From: Psammoneis japonica | Lineage: Eukaryota | Direction of reading: 5' to 3' | Assembly (NCBI GenBank): GCA_008632985.1 | Contig: QPGO01000128.1 | Span: 1-64,000, forward strand | DNA length: 64,000 bases | Part shown: one piece after another, positions 3,618-56,320 of the stretch | Layout of the letters: each line of letters begins with the position of its first letter | Position numbering within the stretch: the first letter of the stretch is position 1 | Translations under genes and position numbers: made by a program | The notes under the pieces: model-generated | Databases searched by the model: none | What the model was told of the DNA's origin: nothing | The model's input: the letters and a program-made list of their open reading frames with translations, nothing else

Positions 3618-5659
3618 GTTGTTTCGATGATCTGTTAATAGTTGTCTCTTTTCGTGACGCCGTCAATGACACCGCACACCGTACAATAGAAAACAACACA
3701 TCCAACTGCGCACAGCGAATAAGGTCTCACCGTTTCCTGTCCTCTGAAAGAACACCCTTGAATCTTGTGTTTGAACTGCACACATGGCAATCTGGGTGCA
3801 TGCCGTTGGCCAAATGGTATGGGTGCATTGGATTGCTGTTGCCTGCACTGGCTGCACTCAGACCATGATGATTGGCTCAGCACCCAATCGTTCTCACACA
3901 CATCCCAGCAAATGCACATCCAAATTTGCAGTTGACCAAGGAAATGAGGGCAATTTTTGGGAAGGAACACCCAAAAAACAAGACGATTGCGGCAGTGTGC
4001 TGTGAGGCTTTTTTGGTGGAGTGTGCTGTTGGTCAAAGCATGGTGGAGACATCGCCATTTCAACACCACGGCAAGCAAAACGATGCACTGCAGCAGTGTG
4101 TCTCATGATGGGCGCTCCCTCACCAGAAGTCTTCTGCAACTGCCCAGCAAAGACAAGGTGCAGACATGCCCAAGGGCTTTGTTGCTGACATGCTGGTGAG
4201 TCTGAGAGTGCTGCCAAGTCTCCACAAGAGCACTTCAGAGCTGTTTGTTGACAGCACACAAAACGCTCATGTTCTTCCTTGGCTTGGTCGTTTTTGGTGA
4301 CTGTGGGGAAGAGATTTGGCAGCATTTTCTCACAATGCAGTCACAAACAGCACATCACTGCAAAGGCCTGAGCCTCAAAATGTGGGCATGGAAATGACAG
4401 CACTGCCACCCCACCACAAGTGTTTCAGAGCTGTTTTGTGGTGATGCACAAAGATCCTCTGAGTGCCTGGTCCAGCAAATTTTTGCAGATGGAGCAACAC
4501 TCTTTGTTGTGGCTGCAAAGATTTGGGGTGCAATGACCCCAACCAAGCAGATTTGTTGCATTGAGTGCCAATGATGGGCTGGACATGCAGGGCTGGCAAT
4601 GATGTCACCTCAAGCACATTTCACAGGAGCTGTTGTGTGGGGTGATGCAAAAATGCTCTGTGGCATCATTTTTGGCAATTGATGATTCAGCACCATGCCT
4701 TGCACATGTTTCTGCTGCAACAGCAACAGCTGGATTGGCACAAAAAATGACTCTGAGTTCACCCCTCTGTGCACCCCAGTGGCAATGCAGGCAGCAGCTC
4801 TTTGATCTGCAGGGTTGTTCTGCATTGTGCATGGCGTGTGCAGCCCACGTTGCTGCTGCCCCAACTCCTTCCTTGTGTCAATGTTGATCACTGTTCAGTT
4901 GATGGAAACAATCACTCTGATGATGGATTGTGGTGTGGGGCCACCTGGAGCTGAGGCGGGCAGCGCACCAACACGACGAGCAACACAGAGATCACAGCGA
5001 CAAAGGATGGCATCTTTTTCAACCACTGCAGCGCTGCTCTTTGGGGCCAAACTGGGTGCCTTTGGCACCCACCATGTGGCGGGGTGGAAAGCTGCGCCCA
5101 TGCTTGCTCTCTTTCTTGTGCGCCCCAACCACGCGGCAGGGTGCGGAGGCAATGGCATCTGCAGCAGTGCCATTCTGCATTGTGTCTGGCACAGTCCATG
5201 CCATTGCCACTTCCACTTCCTCATGGCAATGACAATCGTTGCTTTTTTTGTAGAAACAATGTCATTTTGATGCATTGGCTGTGATTTTTACATTTGCAAC
5301 ATGACGTCAGAGGGCTGCGGTTCAACCATTCGTTCATTCTGTGGGTGCGCAAAAGCAACAGTTGGTGGTGGGCAATTGGTGGGCCAGTGTGCAATTTGCA
5401 ACCACGCTCTTCTGTCGCAGCATGTGGGAAATGCAGATTCTGTGCACTGATGGGTGGGTGCAGATGCAGCAGTGTCTTGACTTGTGTTGCAACACCCTCA
5501 CCCTTCTGGGGTTTGTCACACTGGTGTCTGCTGCAACTCTTGCACGATTTGAAAGGATTGTGGCCCAAACGCGCATCTCAAGCTGTTCCCCCTGATGCCA
5601 GTGACACCGCAATCTTGTTGCCATTGACACACTGACCAAGAGACAGACAGCTCTGCTGG

Positions 5660-8600
5660 GATTCACTTGGTCCCTGCAAATTGGCAATGCTTTGCCGGTT
5701 CATCCACTTGAAACATCCTCTCACAAAGAGGTGAGACACAAACCCAATTGGCCACCAGCCAGTCTGGCTTGGGAGGTTGCAAGGCGTGAACGCAAATCAT
5801 GAGCCCTGGACCCTGGACTTTGGCTGTGAGGGACCACCGCTGCCAAAACAGGAACAAACACAACTGCCAATGCAGCTCACCTGGCATCAACTTTGTCAAC
5901 AAATCTGCCAAATTCATCTCCACATCTTCATTTCCAAGTCGCATGATTCCAGCTGCAACTGCCTCTCTCACTGTGTGACAGTTGACTGTGTTGTTGTGCT
6001 TCTTGTGCAGAGCAGATTCCAGGACACTGACATTCTTCACCATGCTGTGGTTGTCACAGAACACATTTGCTGCTCTCCATCCAATGGCACACCAAACACA
6101 TGCCCAACTTGCAATGCAAAGCAACAATCACGTCCTTGCAAATGTGCATTGCAACCAACTCACTGCTGAATGCAGAAGACTCAGCTGCATTTTGTTGCTT
6201 GCTGAGCCACACAATTGGAGAGTCATTGACAAAGATGACAACGCCAGAGTGTGACCTGTGCATGACAACATTTCCAGCATGGTTCACATCATCAACGAAA
6301 GCGTGCACAGTTGCCGGGTTCCACATGATGGCTTGGGCATGTCAGGTGGTGACTCCTCCTCAACATCACCATGGAATTGGTCCAATCTGCCGCACTGTTA
6401 AGGGGGGTCATCCCCCACTTTTTTAGCTCGAATTTGGCCGAATGGCTCGGGATTTGCATGATTTTTCTTGAATTTCACCGTGCTTCACCGTGGTGAAAAC
6501 ATCAAGCCATAAGTCTGTGACGGAGGTGGGCCGTGCGTCAACTCTCATTTATTTTATGCTTGTTGTGTATCTAAGGTCACAGATGCATCAAATGTTTGCG
6601 CACGGACCACTGCGTTTTGGACTTATGTCTATGTTACCGTCATCGTCGTGCTTCGATCACGGTGCCTGATGTTCTCGTTTTCGTGCGCGATCGGGGGTGA
6701 ATGTAAATAATTTTTGTATTCAAAAATAAACACTATAAATGTCCTTATTCAAATGCCACGATAATTTCTAGGATAATGTTGCGCAGTTTTGCCATCATGT
6801 TTTTCCCATGCTGCCTTCACCTTGGTCATTTCTTTGTTGATTGCTTGAGCCCAGCAGCATGTCCCCATTTCACGATCAATCTGCAGTGCTTCATGACTGC
6901 TCTTTGGCAATTTGACCCCAAACTTGTGTGTGATTCTCCAACATTTCAACTTGACCTTTGACATGGCAGTGTGACTCCGCTTTCTCAGCACACAAGGCAC
7001 CCACCAAGCAAAAGGGGTGTTGTCTGCAATTTGATTTGCCACTGCGCACTCAGCCACTTTGATTGGGTTAGAATCCTTGATGTCTTTCAATTTGACCCAG
7101 TTGGAACTGCCGTCGTTCCATGCCACAAGCAACTCCCAGTCTTTTGTTGTCTTCCTCTTCTCATCTTGGCCTCCTGCAGTCTCGACTGCACCGTCATCCT
7201 TCAAAATTGCTTCCCATGTCATCCGGTGGTCTTGCACTTCATGCAAAACAGAGAACTGATGACCCTCATCATCAACCTGAGCAAACACATTTTCAGCTGT
7301 GACATTGTTTGCAGCACACTTGTCTTTCGTTCCATCCGTGTGTTCAATTTTTGCACTCTCTTGCATCAAACAATGGGCTCTGATGTCTTCTTTCTGTTGG
7401 TTTGCTGTCATGGCCTCTCACTCTCTTTGTGACCACTCCACATCTCTCCCCTTCTGTTCCAAAATCAAGGATCAGTTCCATGCCAAGGTGCTGGTCTGTG
7501 GCTTCCTCGTCATCATCATCAGGACGCGCGCCCCATCTGTTGGCATGCTGCCATGTTCTTTGTCATCTGGCATGACACCTCCTTGATGCTGCACTGCATT
7601 GTCCCCGTCTGTTGCACAGTCATCCAAACAGAATGCTGGGGCTGCCTTGTCTCCCTCAAGCATGAAATTTTCATCATCCAAACGTTCCGTCAAGGCTTCA
7701 CCAAACTCATCAATCCACATTTCCTTTTGTCCAATTCAACATGGTCTGCCTGCACAGGTTGCAGTCCAACAGCACATGTCCAATCTGACCTTGTGTGACA
7801 TGCCAAGCCATTTTCTGAGTCATTTTGGGTCTTCAGCTGCACTTGGCTTCAAATCTGGTCTATCCCACCACCAAACCAGGCCGCAGAATCCAAAGTCTGG
7901 GCACTCCCCAATCTCTGGTGTTTGTCATGTCACTTCTTCATGTCCAGTTTTCCTGTCTTGACCTCATGCCAATCTTGACAGCAACTCTGCTTCATGTGGA
8001 AGACCAAAATCCCATGGCCATTTTGGAACCTTCTTCTTGTTCATTTGCAGTCTTCAGTGCTTGGCCAGGAAACTCATCTCCCACACTGCTGCATGGTTCT
8101 GGTTCTTCCTGCCCTGTTCAGAGTTCCTGAGCTGCACCCACATGTGCCTTGCATGTTTCACAAAATCTGCATTCTTGCCAGTGAATTCTCCTGCCTCATC
8201 CATTGACAAGAACTTGGGTGCTCCAACGTCATCTGCAAACTTGAATGGAGACCATCCTGCCTCTGACCAAGCCATCATTGGGACAACCTTTACAAACTTT
8301 CCCTGAGTGCAAACATCAGCACAAGTGTCGCCAACAATGAACTTGACCTTTGAGATGAGGGTGTCAGCAAACCATGTCCCTTTTGGTCTCTTCTGGTGCA
8401 AATCCAAGTTATCCACGCAAACACGCCTCAAAAATGGTTGCGTTGCTGTCCTGACACTGTGCTGAGTCATGACATTGAGAGTGTCCTTTGCTGTTTCTGG
8501 GCCAACATTCCATCACTTCTGTGCCAACTCCTCCACCGTGATCTTAGAGTGCTGATCCTTTGTGCAAAGTTCTGAGCCCTTTTTCTCTGGCCTGTCAACA

Positions 8601-9950
8601 TCCTCCCCATGGGCACACGCAATCTTTGCAGATGCAGTCATGTGGTCACAAAACATCTGAAGGTGATGAATCAGGGAAACACTTGCCACAGCCTTCTCAA
8701 CTTCTCCCCACCGGACTGCCATGGACTCACCTCCATCTGCTCTTGCCAACTCTGACATCTCTGACTTGTGCATGTGTGGCATCAATGATTGGATGGTCCG
8801 CATGTCCTGTTGCTCTCTGGTCTCACTCGGGAAACCCATGTCAACTTCTGATGGATTCCAAGTGTTGCCTGCAAGCAGGGCTGTGGGCAAATTCTGCTCC
8901 TCCCATTCTGTGGGCACACAAGACTCAAAAGACACCACTGTCCCAGTGGCTTGAAAAGGGATGAAGGCTTCTTCTGTTGGTGAAACACCAAAGCTGTCTT
9001 GGGGATTGCAAGGGTTGTAATTCACTGAGACATTGCATGCCTGCAGCTGCTGATTTGGATCCAAAACATGACATCTGGTCACCCAATGACAAATGTTTGA
9101 TCATTGCATCTGGATCTGTCCAAACAGTGCAACATCGCGCAACTGGAATTTGGTTGACCCATCGCACAATTCCAGGAATGAACTTGCTTCACACATTTCA
9201 TTGGTGGTCTCCATCAATTTCCAGTTTGCTCCTCTGCACAACATGTGTCTGCATGAGTGTCACATTCATTGCAGGACATGTGGCCGGGAACCACATTGAG
9301 ACAATTGTTGCATTCACTGACTGTGCCAATCTCTTGGAGGTTGCCTTCACTTTTTGAAAGCTCTTTGCAATGTTGTTTGGGTGGGGCTTAGACAGCATGA
9401 GCAGCAACAGCAGAGACAATGCAATCGTGTTTGTGTGATGTGCAAAAAAAGCTGAAGCCGCCTTCACCCCACACCATCAGATGTGTGCATGGGCACCACC
9501 ATGTTGACCTCCTTTCTCATTCTCTCATCTGTGTCCACATCCATGACCTGCACTTGCAGCATCGGTTGGTGGTTGTTCCTGCTGTTGTTGCATCAATTTG
9601 TCTGGATTCTGGCACACAACAGCTGCCTGTTGTCCACCGGGGCTGCCACGTCCACATCTGGGACTGTTGCCTTGTCCAGCCATGCACTTGCGGGCTTGCA
9701 CAACATGCACTTGGCCACCATTGAACCTCAGTTGCTGCCATTCATTTGGGGAAAAGGTGTGAGTGGGATCTGCTGTGTCCACACTGTCAATCATTGCACC
9801 CGCACCTCTGCCCTCTGCCACCGAATTGTCCCCTGCCATGCCTCTGGGTTCACGGCCTCCACCACCACCTCCTTGGGGGGGCCTCTGCCACTGCCTCAAG
9901 TTCAGCCCCCACCTGGGCCTCTGTCATGGGACTTGGTTTGGTTTTGCTGT
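5660..9950 (-). mobile_element. Degenerate Ty1/Copia LTR retrotransposon (diatom CoDi-like): gag end, protease, integrase and RNase H; RT core missing
   Basis: Protease-like NECDTHADTCC and IPVARCCTVWTD (about 9100-9270). Integrase GTWFADTL, FADDVGAP, AGEFTG, SEQGRKNQNHAA (8054-8470). WELLVAWNDGSSNWVKLKDIKDSNPI...FAWWVP (6749-7411). RNase H FVDDVNHAGNVVMHRSHSG, SSAFSSELVA, VFCDN, VNCHTVREAVAAG, NLADLLTK (5830-6330). Many stops and frameshifts. LTRs not resolved; possible PPT/LTR start near 5665-5680. Confidence 0.9.
6402..6776 (+). mobile_element. Non-autonomous DNA transposon (MITE) copy 1; left TTAA and TIR present, right TIR missing
   Basis: TTAA at 6398-6401 followed by GGGGGGTCATCCCC. 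The body aligns with 34127-34520 (e.g. TGAATTTCACCGTGCTTCACCGTGGTGAAAAC, AAGCCATAAGTCTGTGACGGAGGTGG). It ends at GGATAA, where Copia sequence resumes. Confidence 0.85.
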
Positions 9951-12900
9951 GGGATCCTCAAAAATTCCCTGGGGTTGCCACCTTTGGCAGTGTTTTTCTG
10001 TGGGAAGCGTGAACTCTTTGTGGGGGGGGGGGGGGGGGAGCACAAGTGATGCTTCGTCACATGCATGCTCAACACATGAATGAAAAACAATGCATTGACA
10101 ATTCCCCATGCTTCCCCTCTTGTACATTTCTGTGTGCTCCTTGTGTCAGCATGTGCAGAACCACACACCAGATGTGTGCAAATCAACAACAATTGAAATC
10201 GACCGACCGCAACAAAAATGGGCAACACACCATGGAGCGTTTGCACCCCAGCTGTGATGGCTTTTGCCAAACAATGACAACACCAGTCAATCTGGTGAAC
10301 AACACCACAATTGACAGTGTAAAATGTAAAATGAACAAAAGCTTGACAGATTGTGTTCAGAAAAATGGTGCACTGGTGGATCATTGCACTTGTTCTTTTG
10401 TTGTGCAGTCACAAATGCAAGCCATGAGGCATCTGCAGCAAAGTCCAAGGCAAAAGCAGAACTGTTTGTGGCCAACAAAAATGTGGTGGATTGAACAGTC
10501 ATGCTTGTTCTTCCAGTTGATGCATCTCATGTGCAGAGTGAAGCGAGTTGTTTGGGTGGGAATCACTCTGTTGTCATGCAGCTGTGGGTGGGGACGCAGT
10601 GGACATCATGCAGAAACGGATTTTCTTGGATCAAAATGAGAGTCATCTCCTGTGGAGATTTGCTCCCCTGGTGGTTGAAGGGTTGAGGTCACATCTTCTA
10701 GTGTGTTGAACTCCAGCTTTGTCATCCTTCCCAGTTGTCCATTTGACATGGGTTGAGCTGAGGGTGCAGTTGCTGGAGTCAAAGGCATGACCAACAAAGA
10801 CGTTGAGGGCAAACAAGCAGCATCGTGGGGATCGCAACAGCAGACTGTGGAAACTCAGCAACAAGCAGCTCCCGACAATTGTTCAAGCACTGCATCTTGG
10901 AAAGAGAAACATCTAGATGTGTTGCCTTTCTAAGTTTGGGCCAAAACCACTGCTGATCCAAACTCGTCATCACCTTCTGCTGCTCATGGTCCTCTCCATG
11001 CTTGACAGTGCGGTCGACCATCCACGAACAAAGGTTGAGTCGACTGCCAAAGATGCTGATCATGCTGACCATGCTGGATGCAAAGCCCCACATTCTCATG
11101 TAAATCACAACTGTCATGTGAGTGTAAAGTTCGCGCTGCCCTGGACAGTCCAGAACTCATCGTCCAAAAAATCATCTAAATGATCCTGCAGCCACTCCAA
11201 GTGCTGCAGAAAACATTCCATGCAACAGTCAGTGGTCCATTTGGCCCCAGCCCAAGCTCTTCCATGACATCCTTGATGGAAATTAAGTCTCTTACATCAG
11301 AGAACACATCATGCCAAAAGGTCTTGACAAAAGTTTGCAACATGTGCTCTTTGATGCCTTGCACCGGTTGGAGTCACACAGTGCTGTTGCGTGGCATGAC
11401 AACAGGCACTTTTGCCCAAACCTGCCGGTCCCTGCAGCACTGACAAAAAGAAAAGTGTGAGAGACTTGGTCGGCCAGCGATTGCGGTTGCCTTTTCGTGC
11501 TTCTCACAGATGCCACAGCACATGCCATTGCGATTTCAGTTGCACAACGTCCATTTTGATTGAGTCTAACCAGGAATGTGTTGCTCACGCAACATTGCCA
11601 TTGGCAACTGCCACAAGTGCTGTGTGTGTTGTTGCCTCTCTTGCGTGCAAATGTCAATGAGTTGTCCCCAGGGCATTGCTGTTGAGCACAGGTTGACTGG
11701 CATTTGAGGCGTCAGACTGTGCTGCTGCTGCATGCTCCCGTGCCTCCACATCATGAATCCATTTGTTCATTCTGTGTGATTTTGGGAACAACACTCAAGA
11801 GCACTTGTGCTGTGTGAGCAAAAAAGAACACACTGTGCGACGAGGCAAGAAAGCAAGTTCTGATTCAACTTGCACGTGTGCACAGTGCTGCGCGCACTTT
11901 GTGCACTCGCCTCTTTTAGAGCAAACACTGCACAACATTGTGGCTTTGATTTTGCAAGATGTCATGGTTCAGGCGGCTCAGTTCTGTCTCATGAAAGCAC
12001 CATTTGGATGACGGCATGTTGCTCAGATGAGATGTGAACAAGTGACGTGTTCCAGCCGCACATGACCCAAATCGTGCACAAAAACAACATTTGCGCGATT
12101 TTTGCACGGTCTCTGACTTACAAACGGTTTTTCACCACCAAAAGCATAGATTTGTTCAAATTTGAATGTTTTGCAACACTGACAAGACTCGTGTGAGTGT
12201 TGCAAAATCATTGTTGTTGTGCCATCAATGTTTTTCATTGCGACAAACAAACGAATCGTAACACAACGGATGATTTTCGGCAAAATTGTTGCCGTTGTTT
12301 GGGTGCCAACCAAGTGTGTCTTTCTATGATGCTGCTTAGCAGGTTTTCTGCTTGCAAAGAAATCTCAGCATAAAATGTGCTGACGCACAATCAGCGTTGA
12401 GTCCACTGAGGAAGTTTGTGATGCATGTCCCATGAGGACTTTAATGCCCCACAAAAAACTGTTTAAATGTTCATGCTCCAGATGCCCACAAAAGCCAATC
12501 CACTTGAACATTTTACATTAAAATGCTTCATACACTAAAAGGCACATAATTTGCATTCAAAATCGATTGTCATTTTGTGTGTCACCTGGGGCTGGAACAC
12601 GTCAAGTCCTTCTCAGACATTTCAAAATCACTTGATTGGGCGGCCGCCAACAGTCACACTTTGGTGCGCCCCGCCTGATTATATGATGGCGGACATGATG
12701 GCATCAAAAGCACAACTCTTTGTGATGATCCTGTGGGTGCGAAAGCGATTTGGTGCGAAACGGTGTGTTTGCTGGTCAGGTGTCGACATTGCTCAATGTC
12801 TCAACCAAATCATTGTTTGAGACAGCCCTTCAGCGTGCTCCACCTAATTAGATGATGGCAGATGCAATGCTTCAAAGGGGCTGTCTGAAACAGTGATTCT

Positions 12901-17338: not shown

Positions 17339-17666
17339 AGCATTACTGCGTACTTGGACTATTGTTTGACAGACTGTGAATTGCAGCAAGTCAACGTTGG
17401 TCAGTGTGTTAGACTGGGACAATTGAAATTGTTTCTTTTAGATATTAATTTTGACCCTTTTAGTTCTATTAACACTTATTACAGTACAAGTAGGGATTGC
17501 CAGGCAAGTGCTCAAACGCCTCTACAAGCATAAAAGCAGCTTGAAATGCACCGGTACTCTCCACCTTACGGATCTTGAAATAAATGATCGAGTAGTCTTG
17601 GCGTGCTTTCCTGTGTCAACAACGCCACTCGGCCGTCAAGCGTCCGTCCACCATGGATACCTTTAG

Positions 17667-38928: not shown

Positions 38929-38960
<32 letters not shown>

Positions 38961-39001: not shown

Positions 39002-39033
<32 letters not shown>

Positions 39034-42610: not shown

Positions 42611-45600
42611 TGACAAGCAAGACACCAAGAAAATGCAAGAAAACAAAAGCAACAACATGCACACAGCATGAGTTGAGGTGAGACCAGCCAAGGAAAAACA
42701 AGAGATTCCATCAGAATTTTTGCGACTGGAAAAGCAACAAGCAAACAATGATCTGGGGACTCCATTGAGCCAGAACACTTGCAAGCATCCACGAGAAGAG
42801 TGGCAACAACTCCAACACTCTTGAGTCATTTCGACTTTGCATGCCCCATGTGGTGAGTTGCTGCTGCTGAAAGGCAAGACAACAAGCCTCCAGAAGGAGC
42901 AAATCATCCTCAGCATCACTTTCACTGCAAGCATGCTTCCTTGCTTTGGTTTTTCTTTAGCTTGATGCAAAAAGACCTCCTTTTCTAGGTGGAAGAGGAC
43001 ATGGTCTGTGCTGTTGATGTGGCTGGCAAGTTGCTTTGCCTTCATGGCCATGCAAGCACAGCTGCGTTTCCTTCGTGGCCTCAGGTGCAAGCACATGCAA
43101 AGCACGGATTGCATTGTTTTGGCATTTTGTTGTTCAAAGTTTCAGAGCTGTTGCATCTGTCATCTGCCCCAGCGGTTTGTCTGCTTCTTAGTGTGTTGTT
43201 TCATGCCCTGACATGAACATGATGTGCGTCATTGTGTCGGTCATTTCTCCCCAAGGCAACAGTCACATTGGTCTGGAGCAGCTGCCGGCATCAGAAGTTC
43301 AACACTCGGAAACCAATTGATCAAGTTTTTGAGTGCAAGTTGTGAGTCTGCAGAGGAAGAATCAGCAAGACGGAGAAGGCAATCTTTTGTGCTTGGTCAG
43401 AAGCTGACTCCACTCCATCCCAACCTGCTCAGGGCCGCTCTCACGGTCTCACAACCAAATTTCTCAGCCTTTCTCAAATGGCACAGCTTGCATGCTCAGC
43501 CTTTCCCATTCTCCACTTGACAACAAGCAACTTGCAATTTTCCTCTCATTTTTTGAGCTCAGCAATGGAAAACATGATTGGACTTTTGCACGTGCAGCTC
43601 CCAAGCTGCACCAAGGTCTTCAAGTCTTTTTTCAAGCACCTGGCCAAGCTTTCCTGCCTTTTCATTGTGAGATGCATTTTCAACCACCATCCAAGAGATT
43701 GTTTTCTTTCTGCACAGAATGGCTCTCATTGCTTTGCTGCTCACCAAAGCATGTGGTGTCCTCAGCAAAAAATTGAAAAACACCTCAAGTTGTGATGCAC
43801 CCTCCATCAGATCTTCTTGTGGCCTCTCCTGAAGAAGAGGATGAAAACAAATCAAACAAGGAGGACAACACCAAAATGACATGCAGCTTTTGGCGTGGTG
43901 TTTGGCAGTGCAACAACTGACTTCAACGATCAAGATCAATGTGCCAATGCTGCCAATTGCAACACACCATTGACAAACAAATGACAGATGCCCCAAATCC
44001 AAATTGCATTGTTGCCAAAGTCAGGTGACTTTTCTGCACATGTGGTTGGAGTGCCCATGAATTGAGGCATCACCCCATCTCAGTGGATGTTGCTTGCATG
44101 CCAAATGGTTGCTTCTCAAACAGGCTTTTGACAGATTTTTTTTTACTGAGTTGCCAGCTCAGCTCCATCAAAAGCAGTTGGACATTGGGAACATCTGTCT
44201 GCCATTCAGCCTTGAAGTTGCTGCAGCATTGACAAACAACTGGGCCATTGTTGGCAAGGCACAGATGGCCCCACATCTCAGGCAAGATTGGCAGGAGGAG
44301 ATGCCTCCATTTCATCTCAAAGCTGTCCCAGTGGAGGAGTTAGAATCACATGGAAAGGAAGGTCACATCTTCTGCCAGAGTTGTGTCTTTGGCGCCACAT
44401 TGTCTCGGGTGAGCCACAAAGCATCGTGCAGATCATTTTGCCTTTCCAAGTTCTCACTCTGTTTCAAATCACAATTTTACAATGTTGGTCAGTCAAAGAA
44501 CATTGTGTGCAACAAAAACCATCAACCACCAGGAGTTTGCATTTGCCCAGCCAACACAGACAAAGTTTGTTTCATTGCACTTGCTCCACACAGACAAAAT
44601 GACCTGTCCACTGGGCACAGGCAAAGTGGTGAGCTCCATGCAGCAAGACTGTGGCACAGATGGGAAAGTTTGCATGTGCTGCTTTTTTGAATGTCTCGAA
44701 TCATGTGCTGTTTGTGTCTCATGAGCTGTCAAATGTCGCTGCAAAAGGCATGTGCAGCCAAGTTTCTTGTTGATGCAGACTTGCTTCTGGGCAAAGCACT
44801 GGATTTGCTTGGTGCCAATTGCAGCCACTTCTCTCATAAATTGAAAGCACAAAGTGAGGCAGACAAGCTCAAGGAAAAAACTCCTTGGTTTGGGTGAAGA
44901 AGTGCTGGCCCTTGGACTCAGTGAATTGCACAAATGGCAAGTGTCAGAGAGCCACTTTGTTGTTTGCTGTGGATGAGAACAAGCGGCAGGCTTGGCTGTG
45001 TCCCCAACTTTGGTTTGACTGATTTGGACAAGACAAAAAATCATGGCACAAAGAAAATTGTTTGTGGAAAAGAAAAAAGGGTGCCAGCTTCTCAAACACA
45101 CTTGTGGCTTGAAACAAATTGGCATGGTGTGATTGGCCTGGCAAGAAATTTGCACTTCTTGACCCAGGTGTGGAGCAATTTGTTGCTTGCAGAGCATGTG
45201 CACTCATCTTTTTCTGACTTGCACCCAGCAATGGTGTTGTGACAAACAACAAGTTGGCACCTGGTGTTGGCACACGTGCAAGGTTTTTGAGTTGCTGCAG
45301 TTGCCACAGGAGGAAGCCAGTCTCAGCCTGCTGTCACAAGAAACCAGCAGGGTGATTGAGGATGGGCTGCACATTGTCTTTTTGCCATGTTGCAGAGGAA
45401 GAACATGATGAGCACCAAGATCATGATGAACGCACTGCATTGGCAACAGTGCAAGTAAAAAAAAAAAACAGAACCCAATGCACAAGAACTCCACCCGTGC
45501 CTCAAGAACAGAGCATTGAGCAGAAAATGACATTGACAAAAACAGTGCAAAGTGAGGTGAGTTTTAGAATGGCAGCTGCATCTGATGCACATGAAGTGTT

Positions 45601-45859
45601 GGTCTTGCCTTGGAAAGCTTTCCTTGCCTGATGGAGGTGTCTTGCAAAACAAGTTGTGTGGGGTCCACTTTTTTTTCATCACTGGTTCTTCTGCCATTTC
45701 CCCGTGGTGCCCCGTCTTTTGCTGCAGCAATTTTCAATCACTGTGTCTCCTTTTTCTCATTCCCAAACACTCTTCTGACTTGACACAGCTCCTCCTGCAC
45801 TTGCAATTCTTTCCCCAAGCAAAAGAAAATAAAAAAAAGAAGATCAAGGTGCAAGCTTC

Positions 45860-47250
45860 AATGACGAAAGATGTTGCTGCAGTTGGAAAAAACCCCTGTG
45901 TGCACCATGCAATGCACTCTGTTTGCTGACTGGTCTTTTTGTGGCACCAAGATCAGCACTGGGAGCCCATGCATTGGAATGCCAGGGGTGTCATTTTGTT
46001 TCAGAAAAGCAGCTGTTTCTTCCAGTGCAAGCCATTTCTGGAAGCTCAGCAATGACAGTTGGTTGCTCTCCAATGGGTGGACTTTCTGACCCAAGCCATC
46101 ATGCTGAGGCATTTTGGAGGACCCTGCTTTTGTTGAAGCAACCTCAACAGCTGCCTTCAATGATGACGGCACTGTCATTTTAGACCAATCAATTGCTGCC
46201 ATGTCCAAAAAGTCTGAAGGAAAAGTGGCTCATGCAGGCTGACCATGCAAGGGTGACAAAGGGTTGCCAACCCCAACAAATGGTGCCCCATCAACAGACA
46301 CACTTTGTTGGCAAAGCTCAGCTCTTGTGGCGGGGCCACAACCACAGCTGGGCCACAATGTTGAGCTGCTGCATTAAACTCTGTTGGATGTCACCCATCC
46401 CCAGAGGCACATCAATGACAAGACAATCAAAACCACCCCAGCCAGCCATGCTCAACTCTTGGTCAATGAGTTGGGTGACGAGCAGCAACCATGGGCCTGC
46501 ACACCGTGGCACTGCCCCGTTGTCAATGCATCCGAAGCTTGTAAAATGAAAGGCTGATGTTTTTGTTGCAGTGGAGCAATTTGGCATCCCACAAAGTGGA
46601 CAATGTTGTTGCTTGGCTCTGTCATGGTGTGGGCCACAAGCTGGGGTTGCAGATGATGGCATCAAGAGTGCCTCCACCATGGCGCCTGACTCTTTTCCAG
46701 GGCAAAGGCAAGAGTGACCAAAGTGGTGGATTTTCCCACCCCACCTTGGCAATGGCCAATCACAAGGGCAATGGCACCTGCTTGTGTCAAACCAAAGGCA
46801 TCCATTTCAGTGTGTGTTTCTTGGGCCATCATTTGCATGTGAGCACCTTCTGCCCAAGGCAGAGCTTTCGCCAATTGTTTTTGCTGTTCTTGAGATGAGT
46901 CCTTGATGGAGCACACTGGTGTTGTAAATTGCACATCACAGGAAACATCGTTTTCATCATCTTTGCTCAAATGGCAAAGCCCAGCAGTTGTGTGATGACA
47001 TCAGCATTGAGATCAGGGCCAGTCATTTGCTCCAAGGTTTGCAGTTTGTAGAGCACTGGGCTGCCCTGCCATTTGGTGGGAGGAGGAGTTGGCAACAAGG
47101 AGGCATGCAGTGTTTGCAGTGGTCTGCTGGAAAACAACAATGACGACAGAGCAGAAGCCATTGTCACATGGATGAGAGCCAGAAAAATCAGCAAGAGATC
47201 AGCTTGCTGAAGGGGCAAGTGTGGCACCCACTCCTTCTTGTTGTCATCAT
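45860..47250 (-). pseudogene. HCF101: HCF101-like (Mrp/NBP35 P-loop Fe-S assembly factor with N-terminal DUF59) pseudogene, copy A
   Basis: GPDLNADVI..LGF, VSCDVQFTTPVC (DUF59), CQGGVGKSTT..LAFAL, SFGCIDNG, VTQLIDQ, WGGFDCLVIDVPLGMGDIQ. Fragmented by stops and frameshifts. Confidence 0.75.
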
Positions 47251-50039
47251 GACAACTTGATGGTTGGAAAAATTTTGGCTTGTTTTGTTTTGTTTTTAAT
47301 GAACTGATGAGGTTGACCAAAAACATGAGGGAAGTGCCTGACTTCCAACCACTTTGACATGAGTCAGCCAACACGAATGCTGGTGACACACCAAGAAGCC
47401 ACTTTTGACACACAAGAACCCAATTGATTGAGATGACATCACACAGCAGTGAGCAACCTTTTTAGATCCTCCAGTGCAGAGTGGCAGTTTTTGTTGTGGG
47501 GATGAAAAGGAGCAAAAACTGCAAGTCCACAGCCCCACAATCAAGCTGACCCAACTCCAACCAGCCAACAAACAAAATGTGTTTGCCGCGGCCCACACAA
47601 ATGCCACCAAGAATGCTGCTGGAGAGGAGCACAAACCCCTGGTTCCTTGTTGCACTTTCTGACTTTGGAGGGCTGACAGCGTTGCTCTTCATGCCTTGTA
47701 AAAGATGTTGGGTGGCCATCTCCATGCTTCAGAGCCCTGTGTGGCAAGGGCTTCTTGAGAGCAGAACTTTGACTGGTGTTGGGAACCACTGTCTCAATGC
47801 CTGTTGCAACTGGTGCACTTTTTATGAGCTCCAAGAACATTGTGTTTGGTTGTGAAAATGATCCCCAATCCATGCCAGTCAATTTTCCCTCCATTGTGAT
47901 GACAGCCAGTTGATTTTGCTGAGGCCCCTCATCTTTTCAGAAAACCAGCTCGAATCAAGCCAGTTGCAGGATGAGTTTGTTGGAGGGAGGAAGCGAATCC
48001 ACGAATGGGGCATGTGTCACACCCCCTCACACAGTGCATGATGTTGGCCAGTGGGAGCCAAAGCATGACACACAATGCAAACTGCATCCTTGCAGCAGCT
48101 TCACTTGTTGCACTGCAGTGCAAAAAAGAAAAAAAACATCAGACATCTGTCATGCCAAAAAAACCCAAATTTTGGGAATGCAACTGCTGTTTTGCAGACT
48201 CTGGGACTCTGTCAACAATCCACCTTAAAACAAAATCATGAAACACAACAAAGACAACCTTGTCATGGTCATGGCAGTCCAAGTCTCAAAATGACAGTAG
48301 AGAAAAGGAGGGTTCAAGTGCAAAACACAAAAAATGGCACCTCAAAAATTGGGTCTGCAATGATGGCAAACACATGCTGCACACACAGCAGGAAGTCTTC
48401 TTTGCAATGACAGAAGCTCGCTGCATTGTGTGTGGAGCTTTCAAGGAGCATTTTTGCAGTTGCAGCATCAGAGTTGCTTTCGCAACAGTCGACCAAGATC
48501 AACAATCTTTGTGTTGATTCATGTCGCCAAAACACAACAACCAACAATGACAAGCACATGGTCCATCGACATGTGTTAAATGCAAGAGGATGCAATGGTT
48601 GAAAGTGTGTCAAAGGATTTTTGTGAATGTGATGAGCCATTTTTGCGTCCCCACATTTGTGGCTGATTTGTGGATCTCAATGTTCAAATTTGGTGCAGGC
48701 GAGCGCATTGCACATGCGAGGCAAGATGTTGCAAGCATTGCAACAGCTTCGTTGTCATTGCAGAGACTGCTTTGTGGAGTGGAGTTGACATCATCATCTC
48801 TTGTGTCATTTGCCAAAGTGGCACATTGTTTTCTGCCTCCAGTGCATTTTGCCTGCCTCAATTGAGGGAAAAACCCAGCAGACCAGACACTCTCCAGGCC
48901 AGAGCAGCTGTCTGCTGGCATCTGTGGTTGGAAAGTGCACAAATGGCTGTGTTGATCTGTGGCATGTGAGGGCTTGGATGAGTGTGCACCAACATGAGAA
49001 GTGGTCAGTCCCACCCACTTGTGACTCAGCACTTTGCTGCAGTGAAAACTGCACAGGAATCCAACAATGACAAAAATGGTCAGATGACCTCTGCCAACAG
49101 CAATTCAAGCTGCACCTGACACACATTCTTTGTTCTTGAACACATGAGTTGACCACTTCAAACATCACATGCAGTTGCTTGGACAAACTGGCAGCTTGTC
49201 TGAACGAAAGATGAGTTGTGCTGAGCACTGTTGCTTTTGTGCGCAGTGCAGTGCTCAGCATCATTTTGGCAAAGGTCAGTGAAGTGACTGCATGCAATGC
49301 TCAAAGTTGTGAATTCATGCGCAAAAGAATTGGGAATGTGTGTCAGGTGCAGCTTGTCTGTCTGTGTCTCCTCCTTGCTGGCTCTGACCCACAACCGGGC
49401 TGGAGACAGATGGGTGAGACGAAGTTGGGGTTTGGGGCTGACCACATTGAAAATGACCAAATTTGCATGCGGTCTTTGTTGCACACAAAATGGTGTCCAA
49501 TGACTTTCAAAGGCTTCGGGACTTCACAAATTGGCGCCAAAGATTCCAAATTTTGAATTGCTGCAGTCATTTTTGGGCTGGGATGCCATTGACTCCTGGC
49601 CAGTCGACAGGCCATTTTTCCATTTTGAGGTCATTGGTCATTGGCATTTGAGTGCCGGTTGCTTTTGTCTTTCAATTCTTCACCCTTGGGTGTGAGTGTG
49701 ATGTGGGCAGTGGGACTTGGCCTGCAATGATGCCATTTTTCAGTTGAGATGATGGATTTTTGGGTTTTTGTGCTTTTTGTTGCACATGCAAGCTTGCTTT
49801 CAAACCGGTGGACATGCATGCAGAGACAACTCAACCCCCTTCGTTTCCATGCCTGACAAGGACAATCACACAATGCAAGCCTGGATTGTTGCTGCACTGT
49901 TGAAACCAATGTCTGATGTTTGCAACCTTCAGTTACACTGCCTTGCATGATCATTTGCAGCAGGAGCCTGAGAGCCTTCTTGGGGCCCTCTTGCATGCCT
50001 GAAGTGACCAAGAATGCCAGTGACATGACCTCCATTTCC

Positions 50040-50300
50040 CTGTCATCAAGCTTCTTCCTGAGATGAAGTCCCCCTTTCTTGTTGTCACTCTAGACAGAAC
50101 CACATGAACCCAGTTGTCTCTGTGGTCAAAGTTGTTGACAACCAGGCTCTCAATTGCCCCCCCCCCCCCCCCGGAGCTTTTGTGTGCAGTTGCTGCATTC
50201 TTGTTGCACAAAACTGGGAGCTGAGTCATCTGCATCCTCCAACTGATTTTTGGGGTTCTGTTGTCAATGAAACCCATCACAAGGATGGGCAAGTTGGCAG
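50040..50300 (-). mobile_element. C-terminal fragment of a PIF1-like helicase (Helitron-type); partial second copy at about 55350-55470
   Basis: MTQLPVLCNKNAATAHKSSG...NWVHVVLSRVTTRKG resembles the PIF1 motifs A.T.HK.QG and YV.LSR (Y->H). Confidence 0.6.
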
Positions 50301-50769
50301 CGCACATCTCTCTCCTTTGAAGCCACACAAAATGGACCTCACCACAGTGCACACAACTCACCTCATGCCTCAAGATGGATTGCAAAAATTTGAAAATTGC
50401 ATCCTCATGATCATTGAGCAGCATCATGACTTGCTTTTCCAACAGAGTTGCAGAGAAATGGCTTCCAAGCACTTGGCAGTGAGAGCTGGTGTGGTTGCTG
50501 TCTTGCCTGCAGCCACGGCAATGGCCACATCAACACTGTGTTCATTTGAACACTCGTGCTGTGCTCCCATTGAATGAATGTTGTTCCTTTGCTTCACAAA
50601 TCAAATTTGGCCATCATCCAGGAAAATCATTGGCAAGGATTCATTCCCATTGTTTGGCAGTGACTCACGCTTTCCAGAACTTGTCATCATGACACTTGAG
50701 ACATGGTCAAAGAGCAATCTCAAAAACAATCAAAGAGATCATGCACAAGAGCAGCAGCAGCTTGCAGTT

Positions 50770-51320
50770 GAACACTTGGTTTCCCACAAAGCAGACAATG
50801 TCATCATCCAGTTCTTCAATCATGGTGAACAAGCTGCGCCCACCAATGTGGTGCCCAGTTCTTGCAGGGCACCAAAGGCAATGAGTTGAATGAAGGGATG
50901 GATTTTTCCACTCTTCCTTTGCAGCTGCCAACCATGACAATGCCCCCCACTTGTGACAAACCAAAGTCATCCACTTCAGTGTGTGTTTCTTGAGCAGTCA
51001 TTTGCACTTGAACACCTTCTTCTGCCAAAGGCAGAGCTTGTGCCAGTTGTTTGCACAATTCTCAAAATGAGCCCTTCAGTGTGGTTGAGATTGGGGTCAA
51101 CCACACAAGGTTTGCAGAACATGGCCCTGCCATTTGGTGGGAGGAGTCAGCAATGAAATGAGGCATGCAGTGTTTGCAGGAGTGGTCCGCTGAAAACAAC
51201 AATGGCAACAGAACAAAAGCCATTTTTGTGTGTGAGCAAGAGCAAGAATGATTGGAAGAAAGGGATCAGCGCCCACTGCAGGGGCAAGTGGCACCTGCTC
51301 CTTCTTGTTCTCATCATGGT
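50770..51320 (-). pseudogene. HCF101: HCF101-like pseudogene, copy B (5-prime part only); block 46590-47720 is duplicated at about 50770-51730
   Basis: CKQLAQALP..VQMTAQETHTEVDDFGLSQVG..VGSCKGRVEKS, then SLFTMIEELDDDIVCFVGNQ. DNA aligns with copy A and its upstream flank. Confidence 0.7.
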
Positions 51321-52409
51321 GGCTTGATTGTTGAAAAAGAATGTGCTTGCTGCTCTCATCTCATGTGACCTGGCCATGTTGAGATGAGGGGGGTTGACAA
51401 AAAAGCCAGCACAATTGCAGGTGACACCAAGCTGCTTTGATGCACAAGAGCTCAGCTGATTTAGAGACAGCGTTGCACAGCAATGGCCTTCTTTGGGCCC
51501 TCCAGCACACAGCTGCAGTCTTTGTCATGGGGAAAGAAGCACAAAAAACACAAGTTGCTTCTTGGCTTCACCACCAAACTGATCTGACTCCAACCAACCA
51601 AAAATCTGCTGGTCCGCTGCACACACAAACACCGCTGGCAACAGAGGAGTGCAGATTGTGATGTGAGTGGTGTTGCACCAGGAGCCAACAAAAAAGCAAA
51701 CAAACTCAGCTCCTGGACTTGCCTTCAAGCAACTGGTGTTGCTTTGCTCGCACGACTTCTTGCGGTGATCTGACTCCAGGAGCAGGCAACCAGAGCAGGG
51801 ATGGGAGGACTTTGCCACCACAGCTGGCCCCTTTCCATTCCCAAGCTGGAACGGCAGCATGGCCAGAGGGACGGAGAGGTGGCGGCACTTTTAGACTGTC
51901 CATTTGGCTTGCTGCCAAAGCTCTTCGAAAGAATGAGCAAAGCAGCTCGCTTCCAAAAGCCAGCTGAAACATGCTCAATGATGACGACGATGCGGGGAGT
52001 GATTTTCAGTTGCGTCATCAACTGGCACTGAGAGGTCATCTCCCCATGTCGGTCTTTACGAGGCCAGTGGATGAAATGAGCCCAGAAAGCAGAGAAGAAC
52101 AATCAACTGTTGTCAACACGATCACCAATTATGACCAACGAAGAACAATTCCATGACACCCCATGACACATTGGACGTGAGACGGACAGACTCTCTCTAA
52201 AAATACGACCGACATGTTGCTGACAGACGGTCAGATCGTCACAATTCATTCGCTCCATAAAACGAACGAAACGTGACGCGCTTCCCTCACTGTTGCTTGT
52301 TGCTTGTTGCACTCCGCAAAATGGAAAAGAAATATCATCGTACTCGACACCGGAAGCAAAGGCTCTTCTCATAGTGCATTTTAAAACAAACGTCCAATAG
52401 AGCCGCACC

Positions 52410-53171: not shown

Positions 53172-53359
53172 AGAATTGGTTAGAAGTAGCGGCCCAGATC
53201 ATCTGACTCCTTAATTACAGAATCAGTCTAGATGTTGTGTAACTCCTACTCTAGAGTAGAGACACTTGAAAAACTAAAACTGAGATAAGGAGTCTGTCTA
53301 GATTTGCAACTCCCACTAGAGAGACTTGATGAATAAAAAGTGTGCATTAACCTTTCTGC

Positions 53360-56320
53360 CAGGGGATCTGTTTGCACTGATGCTTCTTTTGGCGGTGGCT
53401 GGTTCAACAGACTCTCAATCGCGCAGCAGCCAGCACTGAAGCTCAAGCCGGCAGATGAAGCCTTCCATTGAACATGATTGGTGGGCACTCAGCAAAAGTG
53501 CTCTGTCTGTCACCACACATTTGTTTGCATGGCTGCTGTAAAAAACCATAAATCTTGTTTACAGTGCTGCTGTGCTGTTGTCCAGCAAGCTGCCTGGTGT
53601 GCAGGCCTGCTGTCAGCGAACCAGCCAGCAGGGAAATGGCAAACTCACACTCATTGTTCCTGCCACAAAAACACATGCCCAAGCACTTAATTCAAGTGGG
53701 CTTGAGCCCATGCCAACCAGAGCAGAGAGGTGCTTTCATGGTGCAATGCTGGCTGCCACAGGGCTTCACATGGGGTTCATGCCACCACAAGTCATGATGG
53801 AGCGAGTGACAGAGAAAGAGTGCCTCTCAAATCTGTGGCAAAAGTGCCACGCAGCCACATGCTGCTGTTGATGGCTTCAGTGAATTGATGCAACCATGGC
53901 ACCTTCCACAAAGCATCACATTGAGCATGAAACTCTTCCAGCAGCAACTCTTTGTCAACAAGGGAAGACCAAATGGCAAGGATGCAATCCGCTCCTCAAG
54001 AGATGCAAAGTTGAGCTGGCTCAGGGTGTTCATGATTGAAATTCTGCTGCACTTTTTGGCTGTGGTGGGGCCACATGAGTGGATCAACAGTCAGTCCTTC
54101 CGTGGCAGACTGTGACATGATGACTTGCAATGCAACTCTGCCCCTCATCTGGTGCAACAGTTGCCTGACATTTCCAGCACCGCCACCCCTTCCTTCCAAG
54201 AATGTGCACTTGTTGGTGCAAGGATGAGCTGTTGTGAATCTGATGAGACAATGACAGAGATGATGTCCAGCAACAAAGACAGTGCAGTCTTGTCGGCTGC
54301 AGCTGTGGATGCAGTTGATGAGGGCATGTTCATGGAAGGATGACTCATTCAATGAGGAAGTGACCAAGGACAGATTTTTGTTGGCTGAAGTGCTGGTCTG
54401 GTTTAACAGCAACTCATTGCTCATCAGCATTTTGTTTGACAAAGGTGAGTTCTGCATTTGTCAAGCACAGCAAGAGCCGCGCATCAGCTGGGGTTGCATT
54501 GATTCACTGAGAGGAGGCAGTCAACAGTGGGGCCACACACATCCCTTCAAAGACTCTCAACTTGTTTTGCTTTGCATCTGGCAAAATGTTGATTTGCATC
54601 ACATCCCTCTCACTTTTTGTTTTGTTTCTTGCACAGGTGTGTTGCTTGGTGCAGCCATCTCAGTCAACGTGTCCTTCATTGTTGTTGCCACCACAGCTGA
54701 GCTCACTCAAAAACAGAACAACAGCCTGTGGCACCAACCAGCCAACAACAACAACAACAACAACAACAGCCCAAAAAAACAATGAGTGCCGCCACCAGCA
54801 CATTCACCAACATGGTTCTTGGGTGGGTGCACCAGCACCTCTGTGGCTTTTGCCTTTTTTTGGATGCAAACAAAGGCGACAAGAAAACATGCCTTTTTCC
54901 CAGCAACAAGAGGATGATCCTCCTTGCAGTGGCACTGAGCCACTTGCTCAAGAATTTTGATGTTTGAACGGGTGTGATGTGTGTTTTCTTGGCAGCATGC
55001 CCCCACAGGAGCTCACCCATCTTCGCTCAGTCTTGTTCTTGTGGCTGTTCTGGCCAATCTGTCTGTGTCTCCCCCCTGCCCCTGCCCTGACCCCAAATGG
55101 ACCAGAGACAGACGGGTGAGATAAAGTTGGGGTTTGGGGCTGACCACTTTCAAAATGACCAAATTTGCAAGCGGTCTTTGTGTGCGAAATGGAGCGCAAT
55201 GACTTTCACACATGGTTGGGTTTTCACAAAAATTGCCATGTTTGCCCATGCAACATTTCAAATTTTGCACTGTCTTGGTCATTTTTGGGTTGGGATGACA
55301 TTGACTCCTGGCCAATCGATTGGCTGTTTTTCTGTTTTGAGGTCATTCATTTCCTGCCATCACAAGCTTCTTCCTGGGACAAAGTCCCTTTCTTGTTGTC
55401 ACTGCTGCAAACAGAACTGCATGAACCCAGGAGTTGTCTCTGCAGTCAAAATGTTGTTGTTGACAACTGGGCTCTCTGAGGCAAAGTGGCCTCTGTGTCA
55501 AACAAAAAGATGCCTCATCTTTTCATTCAAACACTGGAACTTCAGCAAAATGCATCACTCAGCTTGTTGTGGTTGTGGACAGGGGTGACAAGGTCCAATT
55601 CTTTGGGCGCACCTTCTTGACAAGGATGTGAGGAATGGATTGCTGGAAGATCAAGTTTCTTGACTTTCAGATGTTGCCATGAAGATCCGCCAGAGGAGAA
55701 TGGCTGGCCTGCTGTCAGGACTTGTCTGATCACAGCCAATGAATGAAAACACCATGGAAAACCACATCTTTGGCTTTGTCAGTTCGTTGAGAACTGGGCA
55801 AAACAAAGCCCAAAGACAACAAGCACAACAAGACACAAGACAGAGCAGCATGTTGCCAATGATGGTGCATTGTGTGATGTTGTGTGCACGCTCCACCTGT
55901 TGCACACCTGGCCATTTGTGGGCGCTGCCAGCACCATCATCAAGTTGATCAGAGAGGCACATGATGGAAGACGATGCTGATGGGACATTTTACAAAACTC
56001 ACATGGATGTCACAAAGTTGCAGCTTGCTGGTGATGAATGTCCAAACAAAACAAAAGAGCATTGCAGACATGTCCTTTTCCCTGACATTTTTTGATGAAC
56101 AACACGCTGACGTCATTTGTGCGTGTTGTTTGAAGCATCTGACATTTTTGCTCAATGTTTGCAAATGAAGAGACAATGAGACACAGCCATTCAGCGAAGC
56201 GTCCAGTTTGCAGTGATTGCTGCTGGTTCCCACCTTGTGCACTGTACCAGATGCCAGATCTGGGATTTTGACATTTTTTGAAAAGAGATTCCTGTTCACT
56301 CTTCGTCGAGCTCTGGGAAA
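53360..56320. other. TpA-erased domain 5; contains a copy (about 55060-55470) of 49360-49640 and 50030-50150
   Basis: TA is scarce. AAGTTGGGGTTTGGGGCTGACCAC and AAAATGACCAAATTTGCA are shared with 49420-49470. Confidence 0.88.

Follow-up and report, generated by a model that had tools for sequence, protein, structure and literature searches.

Regional hypermutation as a genome defence has long been regarded as a fungal speciality. [quoted passage not shown] A TpA-specific, GC-increasing counterpart has been reported once, in a 2026 preprint on one rhizarian alga, the chlorarachniophyte Bigelowiella natans. According to its main text, two integrated viral regions took 231 of the 302 de novo nuclear single-nucleotide mutations found across 15 mutation-accumulation lines, and 230 of these 231 were A>G or T>C changes, all at TpA (10.64898/2026.01.13.699255). 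Only some lines were affected, at a rate near 6e-7 per site per generation that exceeds the background some 1000-fold; the genome also holds 124 clusters of TpA-poor, CpA+TpG-rich 1-kb windows and a class of 324 coding sequences (CDS) with a mean TpA frequency of 0.0018, among which reverse transcriptase and DDE endonuclease domains are over-represented (10.64898/2026.01.13.699255). Here we describe a closely similar footprint in a diatom, within a 64,000-nt stretch (hereafter the window) of contig QPGO01000128.1 of Psammoneis japonica. More than half of the window is made up of five blocks, B1 to B5, in which TpA has been almost entirely replaced by TpG and CpA, and the best overall explanation, which we hold to be probable, is a context-specific TpA mutator that has acted close to saturation on silenced, decaying nuclear DNA of the diatom. 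This appears to be the first evidence of TpA hypermutation in diatoms: full-text literature searches returned no diatom report, and the words "CpG" and "diatom" do not occur in the main text of the B. natans preprint (10.64898/2026.01.13.699255). A preliminary description of the window, made from the letters alone, had proposed a new system; this appears to hold as far as diatoms are concerned, whereas the same kind of process is already described in the B. natans preprint.

Base composition was measured in 1-kb sliding windows across the 64,000 nt. The ratio of observed to expected (o/e) TpA is about 0.00-0.07 in the five blocks and 0.43-0.83 between them, and the blocks sum to 36,284 nt, or 56.7% of the window, in agreement with the preliminary description of nearly TA-less, TG/CA-rich blocks alternating with normal genes. 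The o/e ratios of TG and CA reach 1.6-2.2 in B1, B3, B4 and B5 and 1.1-1.7 in B2. B1 (3818-12119) is TpA-erased and CpG-depleted (TA o/e 0.00-0.14, CpG 0.17-0.58; TA frequency 0.0052 versus 0.039 in normal DNA) and contains a Copia-type remnant and a later, unmutated insertion. In B2 (19519-25135) TpA is erased and CpG nearly intact (TA 0.0039 and CG 0.0502, versus 0.0392 and 0.0570 in normal DNA). B3 (28893-31445; TA o/e 0.02-0.06, CpG 0.07-0.19) is again poor in both dinucleotides and lies between two TA-normal paralogous genes. The largest block, B4 (34948-52057; TA 0.0022, CG 0.0122), likewise TpA-erased and CpG-depleted, is a mosaic of degraded repeats with diverged duplicates inside, and it shares diverged repeats with B5 (53348-56245; TA o/e 0.01-0.08, CpG 0.15-0.42), which has lost both dinucleotides too; the pairs are 49357-49635 with 55058-55347 and 50033-50151 with 55348-55476. 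The edges of the blocks are sharp, within about 50-250 bp. The window contains 1,127 TA in total, and the longest TA-free gaps measure 2,936 (in B4), 1,433, 1,410, 1,371 and 1,357 bp; with TA at its normal 0.039 per position, a gap of 2,936 bp would arise with a chance of about e^-117. The loss spans coding and non-coding DNA and every codon position, as had been noted from the sequence at the outset. It includes the stop triplets TAA (8.8 per 1,000 positions in normal DNA, 1.4 in the blocks) and TAG (7.7 and 0.8), a six- and a ten-fold drop that lies behind the many open reading frames (ORFs), since stop-to-stop ORFs of at least 90 aa rise from 3.1/kb in normal DNA to 4.7/kb in the blocks.

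The sum of the pyrimidine-purine (YpR) steps TA, CG, TG and CA is almost the same in the blocks (0.2432 of dinucleotides) and in normal DNA (0.2439). Compared with normal DNA, the blocks have 0.0032 instead of 0.0392 for TA, 0.0195 instead of 0.0570 for CG and 0.2205 instead of 0.1477 for TG+CA, so that the combined loss of TA and CG (0.0735) matches the gain of TG+CA (0.0728), indicating conversion and not composition. Purine-pyrimidine steps have no such shift.

The proteins encoded in the blocks give the direction of this conversion. B2 contains a dynamin-like GTPase gene (19991-24071, minus strand; Pfam DUF7605 and Dynamin_N) whose homologs are 40-61% identical and belong to a family that some sources name SLIP-GC/NUGGC; in tblastn alignments its frame switches from -3 to -1 at 22317/22288, which makes it a pseudogene. 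To judge from these alignments, B2 has the size of a gene and carries a paralog from a family of dynamin-like GTPases of diatoms, and no convincing terminal repeats were found around it. Tyrosine accounts for 0 of 860 and 1 of 627 residues in its two ORFs, versus 2.6-3.7% in six neighbouring genes, and none of the 120 listed homologs is Tyr-free (median 1.9%, minimum 0.67%). The codons TAT and TAC occur 0 times and once, and T|A across codon boundaries 7 and 6 times, versus 17-20 times in smaller normal genes. In an alignment of the pseudogene with 39 homologs, the 14 columns with a Tyr majority, five of them invariant among the 31-39 homologs aligned there, read 7 His (CAY), 3 Cys (TGY), 2 Phe, 1 Val, 1 Asn and no Tyr in the pseudogene. 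Other residues are kept, namely Trp in 11 of 11 columns, Phe in 16 of 17, Gly in 26 of 28 and Met in 14 of 16. Over the strongly conserved columns there are 344 matches, 59 differences that need a single step and 20 that need several; 17 of the 59 are explained by TA>TG/CA (among them Ile>Val and Thr>Ala where the preceding codon ends in T), 8 by CG>TG/CA, and the rest are 9 other A>G or T>C, 5 other C>T or G>A and 20 transversions.

The same replacement of tyrosine had been pointed out before in other block ORFs, and the four protein motifs quoted at that time are indeed present where they were placed. It is supported for the Copia remnant of B1, where an ORF has Cys (TGT) at a column that is Tyr in 110 of 150 relatives. 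It is also supported for a Mrp/HCF101-type fragment in B4, which reads FDCLVIDvPLGMGD against LDYLLIDlPPGTGD and LDYLVLDmPPGTGD in two solved proteins, in weak alignments (E 0.02-0.03; FDCLVID itself at E 0.02); a search of this ORF against the PDB gave no match at E 0.01, only these alignments. The proposed PIF1-like ORF (49954-50529, minus strand), and with it a PIF1/Helitron origin, could not be verified, as it has no homolog among longer proteins and no NCBIfam match. These comparisons bear on the idea that the blocks are foreign or ancient DNA natively devoid of TA, or that selection removed it. The composition itself is all that speaks for such an origin, which seems to us barely credible: residues that are Tyr throughout the family read His or Cys in an otherwise conserved protein, the gain and loss of dinucleotides balance exactly, non-coding DNA and pseudogenes are equally affected, and Copia sites with a consensus TA read TG or CA.

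This last point comes from DNA alignments. The ORF at 5666-6127 (minus strand) matches 762 representatives at E<=0.001 and aligns to the extreme C-terminus of Copia polyproteins; its long matches (1,353-1,413 aa) carry RVT_2 and one of them rve, which delimits, with DNA matches at 5841-6401, 7766-8512 and 9113-9270 to 80 metagenome loci (the best 80 of 303 confirmed matches), a Copia-type (RVT_2/rve) pol remnant at 5841-9270 on the minus strand. About 600 nt of 36 of these loci were aligned with the window, 33 TA-normal relatives serving as reference. At the 10 sites where the consensus is TA, the window has 5 TG, 4 CA, 1 GA and no TA, and at the 14 sites where it is CG, 8 CA, 3 TG, 2 AG and a single CG; the TA-normal relatives keep TA in 84.5% and CG in 70% of such cells. 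A>G changes affect 5 of 10 adenines at TpA versus 7 of 76 others (4/29 at ApA, 0/10 at CpA, 3/37 at GpA), and T>C changes 4 of 10 thymines at TpA versus 12 of 73 elsewhere, again over few sites. Change at ApA is not raised (4/29, versus 0.098 in the normal relatives). These counts are small, and they agree with the protein-level data. As read from both kinds of alignment, the direction of change is from TA to TG or CA and the changes are specific to TpA; in the polarised comparisons that the preliminary description had made decisive, 17 of 59 single-step protein changes and 9 of 10 consensus-TA sites go in this direction.

The mutated base could also be the thymine. The same regional hypermutation would then begin with, for example, a TET/JBP-type oxidation of T to 5-hydroxymethyluracil or a derivative that is miscopied or mis-repaired to C. 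TpA being palindromic, all our observations fit T>C equally well, and modified thymines are known in some protists. Nothing in the window favours this chemistry over adenine deamination, literature searches gave no precedent for saturating T>C change arising from thymine modification, and the authors of the B. natans preprint, in its main text, favour adenine deamination, also without proof; we therefore regard a start at thymine as rather unlikely. The adenine route remains our working model for the chemistry.

The metagenome loci further show that the source elements are not TA-poor, a possibility raised in the preliminary description: 77 of the 80 (best 80 of 303) have a TA o/e of at least 0.44. 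The three others (L024, L050 and L020), which are most closely related to one another (77-91% identity) and include the two best DNA matches of the Copia remnant of the window (68%), have a TA o/e of 0.25-0.30, TG/CA of 1.35-1.49 and CpG of 0.79-0.90. At 10-12 of 13 consensus-TA sites they have no TA, and their pairwise comparisons hold 7, 15 and 16 CA/TG double mismatches, versus 0-1 in four pairs of TA-normal relatives, where the differences are mostly CpG transitions. On this comparison, this Copia lineage has undergone the same process in DNA from separate assemblies.

These copies weigh on the question of artefact, as does run X1, a public run from one sample (word depth about 60) whose contigs cover 17000-36999. 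A base modification in silent chromatin might make a basecaller read TA and CG as TG or CA: both depleted dinucleotides are possible methylation targets, the random choice of TG or CA at each site could stem from disagreement between strand calls, and no platform is on record for the assembly or for X1. The X1 contigs are however near-exact over the blocks (10 differences in the contig spanning 20684-26242, none in two contigs over 28980-31786), and they resolve CpG/TpG alleles inside B2, where their depth (66-82) is near that of the flanks (61). Partial TA loss is shared by separately assembled metagenome copies and not by 77 of 80 relatives, a TA-normal insertion sits inside a TA-free block, and the B. 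natans signature, as described in the main text of the preprint, was called from Illumina data (10.64898/2026.01.13.699255). A sequencing or assembly artefact is accordingly unlikely, and we give basecalling at modified bases a very small probability.

The TpA mutator is accompanied by a second process. CpG o/e is about 0.07-0.45 in B1, B3, B4 and B5 and 0.63-0.91 in B2, so that CpG decay supplies about half of the TG/CA excess in the first four. B2 retains 10% of the normal TA frequency and 88% of that of CG (losses of about 90% and 12%), which corresponds, from the logarithms of the retained fractions, to at least about 18 times more changes per TpA than per CpG. All 11 allelic differences listed in B2 are transitions; eight are CpG<->TpG/CpA and none is at a TA, indicating that TpA erasure there is complete and fixed and that CpG decay is ongoing. 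CpG decay is a separate, slower process than TpA erasure, and the TpA step comes before it; B2 looks like the youngest block.

This order also bears on a proposal of the preliminary description, error-prone repair by an enzyme such as DNA polymerase eta (Pol eta) at T:G mismatches from 5-methylcytosine (5mC). Worked out further, it makes TpA loss a side effect of methylation: mismatches from 5mC deamination would recruit patch repair of the Pol eta type, causing A:T>G:C changes at WA near methylated CpGs. Errors of Pol eta favour WA motifs, and TA and CpG are depleted within the same boundaries in four of the five blocks. The proposal fits B2 poorly, as 12% CpG loss represents too few triggering events for 90% TA loss, and it fits no better with the lack of increase at ApA or with the three environmental copies, depleted in TA at near-normal CpG; erasure above 90% would also far exceed the polymerase error expected per repair patch. 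We consider it very improbable as the source of the TpA loss.

TG and CA are near 1:1 in every block (316:316, 619:598, 469:533, 297:267, 1856:2044 and 301:293) and randomly interleaved (runs-test z from -1.31 to +0.78; dispersion in 300-bp bins approximately binomial), and the runs test detected no strand-coordinated tracts in the blocks. The 17 polarised sites of the B2 pseudogene form 6 runs where about 9.5 are expected, which is suggestive only and not supported by the larger runs test. Both strands have been used equally and independently, site by site. Together with the polarised comparisons and the mass balance, this symmetry supports the earlier proposal of a transition process at TpA that affects silenced or degenerate DNA on either strand.

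Repeats within the blocks record when conversion took place. We compared 10 repeat alignments within blocks (2,490 nt) with 7 in normal DNA (2,547 nt), leaving out a tandem array at 1-1186. Adjacent double mismatches with TG in one copy opposite CA in the other number 54 within blocks, the next class having 7, and 2 in the repeats of normal DNA, both in a single pair involving the insertion in B1; two mixed pairs have 4 each. TG opposite CA is the outcome expected when one ancestral TA (or CG) is converted independently in each copy; conversion has thus acted on each copy separately, in place, after duplication.

The TAs that survive in the blocks are not a random sample. Of the 93 outside the insertion in B1, 49 have a 5' T and 74 a 3' purine, and ATAT, ATAC and GTAT are absent, while each makes up about 7% of the 960 TAs of normal DNA (chi-square test, p near 1e-10 for the 5' and for the 3' side). 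The contexts of block TG and CA do not account for this bias, and TA followed by a pyrimidine may be the better substrate on either strand. A preference for U/T just 5' of the changed adenine matches known RNA editing enzymes, as the discussion of the B. natans preprint points out (10.64898/2026.01.13.699255).

That preference and the retrotransposon in B1 are what could suggest A-to-I hyper-editing of retroelement transcripts by an ADAR-like enzyme, fixed through reverse transcription and reinsertion. The equal and randomly interleaved TG and CA on both strands argue against such sense-strand editing, and likewise against long tracts of single-strand deamination; B2 is a non-retroelement gene with its flanks, and copies were converted in place after they had been duplicated. 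Editing of transcripts is in our view extremely unlikely.

What directs the TpA mutator to the blocks is not simple repetition. Two Laminin_G_3 genes (Pfam Laminin_G_3; 27354-28609 and 31750-33005, both on the plus strand), which share 93% identity over 1,256 nt, lie on either side of B3 at a distance of 3 kb and have normal TA; as an internal control, the pair has an ordinary mismatch spectrum and no TG/CA double mismatches. A TA-normal multi-copy element lies at the edge of B4 (34115-34502; TA o/e 0.72, CpG 1.58) and is 83% identical to a TA-normal island within B1 (6391-6776; TA o/e 0.67, CpG 1.26). This CpG-rich element of 390 bp (33675-34502 and 6391-6776) looks like a young, multi-copy mobile element; its summed X1 contig depth is about 5,157 versus about 60 in the flanks, depth being no measure of copy number. 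The TA-normal duplicate and the multi-copy element indicate that sequence repetition alone is not the trigger, contrary to the targeting of repeats envisaged in the preliminary description. The island, a later insertion of the element into the erased B1, has stayed unmutated, so the mutator has not been continuously active on that domain; the TA loss count for the island, 8 sites versus 3, rests on small numbers.

The targets seen are the Copia remnant, old repeats and a pseudogene of a host family. Most of the block DNA is not recognisable by Pfam, and the Copia, dynamin-like and Mrp-type pieces are the three that could be named. The blocks have 175 ORFs of at least 90 aa; the 149 that lie outside B2 returned, when scanned with Pfam, only the ParA/Mrp-type fragment and three sub-threshold matches, and B1, B3 and B5 translated in six frames, with stops replaced by X, yielded a single match, below threshold. 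The fragment (46321-47000, minus strand; Pfam ParA at E 5.5e-6, NCBIfam MrpORP/ApbC at E 2e-4) derives from a gene for an iron-sulfur carrier ATPase of the Mrp/ApbC/HCF101 type, and a second, diverged copy with 76% identity to the first lies at about 50873-51338. No recognisable viral genes were seen in the blocks.

In the mechanism that we propose, the blocks would be silenced, decaying DNA, comprising a Copia remnant, old repeat mosaics with a captured or duplicated Mrp/HCF101-type fragment, and a frameshifted dynamin-like paralog. A mutator would change the A:T of the palindromic 5'-TA-3' to G:C, leaving TG or CA according to the strand struck, and a second, ordinary process, the CpG transition expected where silent diatom DNA carries cytosine methylation, would follow more slowly in the same domains and feed the TG/CA pool. 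The TpA step would be enzymatic and fast, with a rate per site at least about 18 times that of CpG decay in B2. It would act in place on double-stranded chromosomal DNA, be confined to discrete chromatin domains without being triggered by sequence repetition, and be episodic instead of continuous. Such a mutator would remove TAA and TAG and never create a stop codon; genes would be inactivated by missense changes (Tyr to His or Cys, and A to G at the first position of a codon when the codon before it ends in T) and not by truncation. For B. natans, the preprint puts forward, as an unproven idea, a DNA adenine deaminase of the ADAT2 type (10.64898/2026.01.13.699255). The same chemistry is the likeliest here: a deaminase preferring a 5' T, TadA/ADAT2-like or other, would turn adenine into hypoxanthine, which is read as G; we give this step somewhat under an even chance at the most.

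Several points weigh against this explanation. The polarity at the DNA level rests on 10 consensus-TA sites in one 600-nt alignment, and the choice of the best 80 of 303 Copia loci favours intact copies. A>G on one strand of the palindrome is T>C on the other, the bias of surviving TAs towards T-TA-R may be an enzyme preference or something else, and the chemistry and the targeting rule are matters that we infer. The X1 run, whose platform is not on record, is possibly the assembly's own source and so not fully independent. No current activity is seen, as no allelic difference at a TA is listed in B2 and the insertion in B1 is unmutated. Finally, one target, that in B2, belongs as a paralog to a gene family of the host and is not obviously foreign.

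Some further features of the window are worth describing. It contains no deaminase candidate gene. A match to SNAD1 (AID/APOBEC-like) by an ORF of B5 (53999-54460, minus strand; E 0.008 among 149 queries, with 16.5 bits where the cut-off is 25) was judged to be noise, the translation having no HxE motif and no Atlas match; the Cys/His-rich sequence produced by TA>TG/CA and CG>TG/CA mimics zinc-binding motifs. At the start of the window, a tandem array (1-1186) with a period of 126 bp and copies 81-84% alike lies within a long open frame (2-1234, plus strand). It is TA-poor (10 TA; o/e 0.12-0.28) yet rich in CpG (1.07-1.27), and its TA-poorness probably reflects the make-up of a single amplified coding unit and not hypermutation. 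Next to B1, at 1666-3662 on the minus strand, are ORFs with an NPHP3_N (NACHT-type P-loop) domain and a TpA that is normal to slightly low (0.33-0.64). B4 includes a long CAG/CAA triplet array (38867-39081), of which a related flanking segment is found again at 42158-42236 (87% identity). The normal DNA includes a threonine synthase gene whose matches, none of them exact, share 70-81% identity with it and come, wherever a source is named, from diatoms, in line with a diatom host. A stretch of 101 bp (33736-33836) with GT..AG ends on the minus strand is skipped by the contigs of a second run, X2, and is probably an intron. This run, labelled "DNA?", covers mainly gene regions and behaves like spliced RNA or a transcriptome; it has no cover on B2 or most of B3, an absence that says nothing on expression. 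Among the proteins of a public library, six short Copia C-terminal fragments (P0256, P0267, P0270, P0296, P0304 and P0339) are Tyr-free with Cys or His at the Tyr column, and may be predictions from similarly scrubbed elements in other data sets.

The saturation seen in a diatom, together with the partial signature in environmental Copia relatives, suggests that the process is widespread in the supergroup of stramenopiles, alveolates and rhizarians (SAR). TpA-free, TG/CA-rich blocks with a conserved YpR total would provide a marker for surveys. Such blocks inflate ORF counts, and their Tyr-free, Cys/His-rich pseudo-proteins can mislead gene prediction and domain searches. We tentatively put forward, as a minority expectation, that diatoms and chlorarachniophytes share a chromatin-directed, enzymatic genome defence, of a type so far characterised nowhere, in which bursts of TA to TG/CA change on double-stranded DNA saturate newly silenced domains well before CpG decay and disable genes through the loss of Tyr and other TA-bearing codons while making no stops; if so, part of the orphan ORFs of diatoms would be scrubbed transposons. 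A natural TpA-specific adenine deaminase acting on double-stranded DNA, if it exists, would be a new enzyme class, usable as a base editor.

The process can be set beside several known systems. CpG decay through 5mC accounts for the loss of CpG and about half of the TG/CA gain in B1 and B3-B5, for the CpG/TpG alleles of B2 and for the CpG-type differences between TA-normal Copia copies; it cannot remove TpA, which was lost with CpG near normal in B2 and in three of the environmental loci. In changing A to G and, as the preprint discusses, in a 5' T/U preference, the TpA process resembles TadA/ADAT2, ADAR and engineered adenine base editors, whereas the natural enzymes work on tRNA or double-stranded RNA; we know of no natural enzyme that erases TpA from double-stranded chromosomal DNA. 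AID/APOBEC mutation and the A:T phase of somatic hypermutation are likewise clustered, context-specific and enzyme-initiated, directed at foreign DNA or serving diversification. They start at cytosine in single-stranded DNA and leave strand-coordinated tracts; in the window, adenine or thymine at TpA is altered, with neither strand tracts nor an excess at ApA.

With RIP the process shares a regional, saturating transition hypermutation of transposons and duplicated genes, and skewed blocks beside normal genes. It runs in the opposite direction, as TA is destroyed and no stops are made, and a repeat trigger is unsupported, given the TA-normal Laminin_G_3 duplicate and multi-copy element. DNMT4 genes related to RID are present in many diatoms, with a function described as unknown (PMC9998398), and nothing links these genes to the TpA process.

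The closest likeness, within what the main text of the preprint presents, is to B. natans, which also has TpA converted to TpG/CpA on both strands in confined regions; the TpA frequency of the blocks, 0.0022-0.0052, compares with the 0.0018 of its TpA-poor CDS class. Judged by the cut-offs given there for clusters, B1, B3, B4 and B5 pass on both counts over many consecutive windows, and B2 passes for TpA, its TG/CA of 1.1-1.7 lying partly below 1.52. The hosts differ, a diatom (stramenopile) here and a chlorarachniophyte (rhizarian) there, as do the targets, a Copia remnant, old repeats and a host-family pseudogene as opposed to integrated viral regions, and a saturated fossil footprint stands against de novo events. 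Beyond what that text reports, the diatom blocks add the order of TpA erasure relative to CpG decay, the independence of conversion for each copy and each strand, and the lack of a simple repeat trigger.

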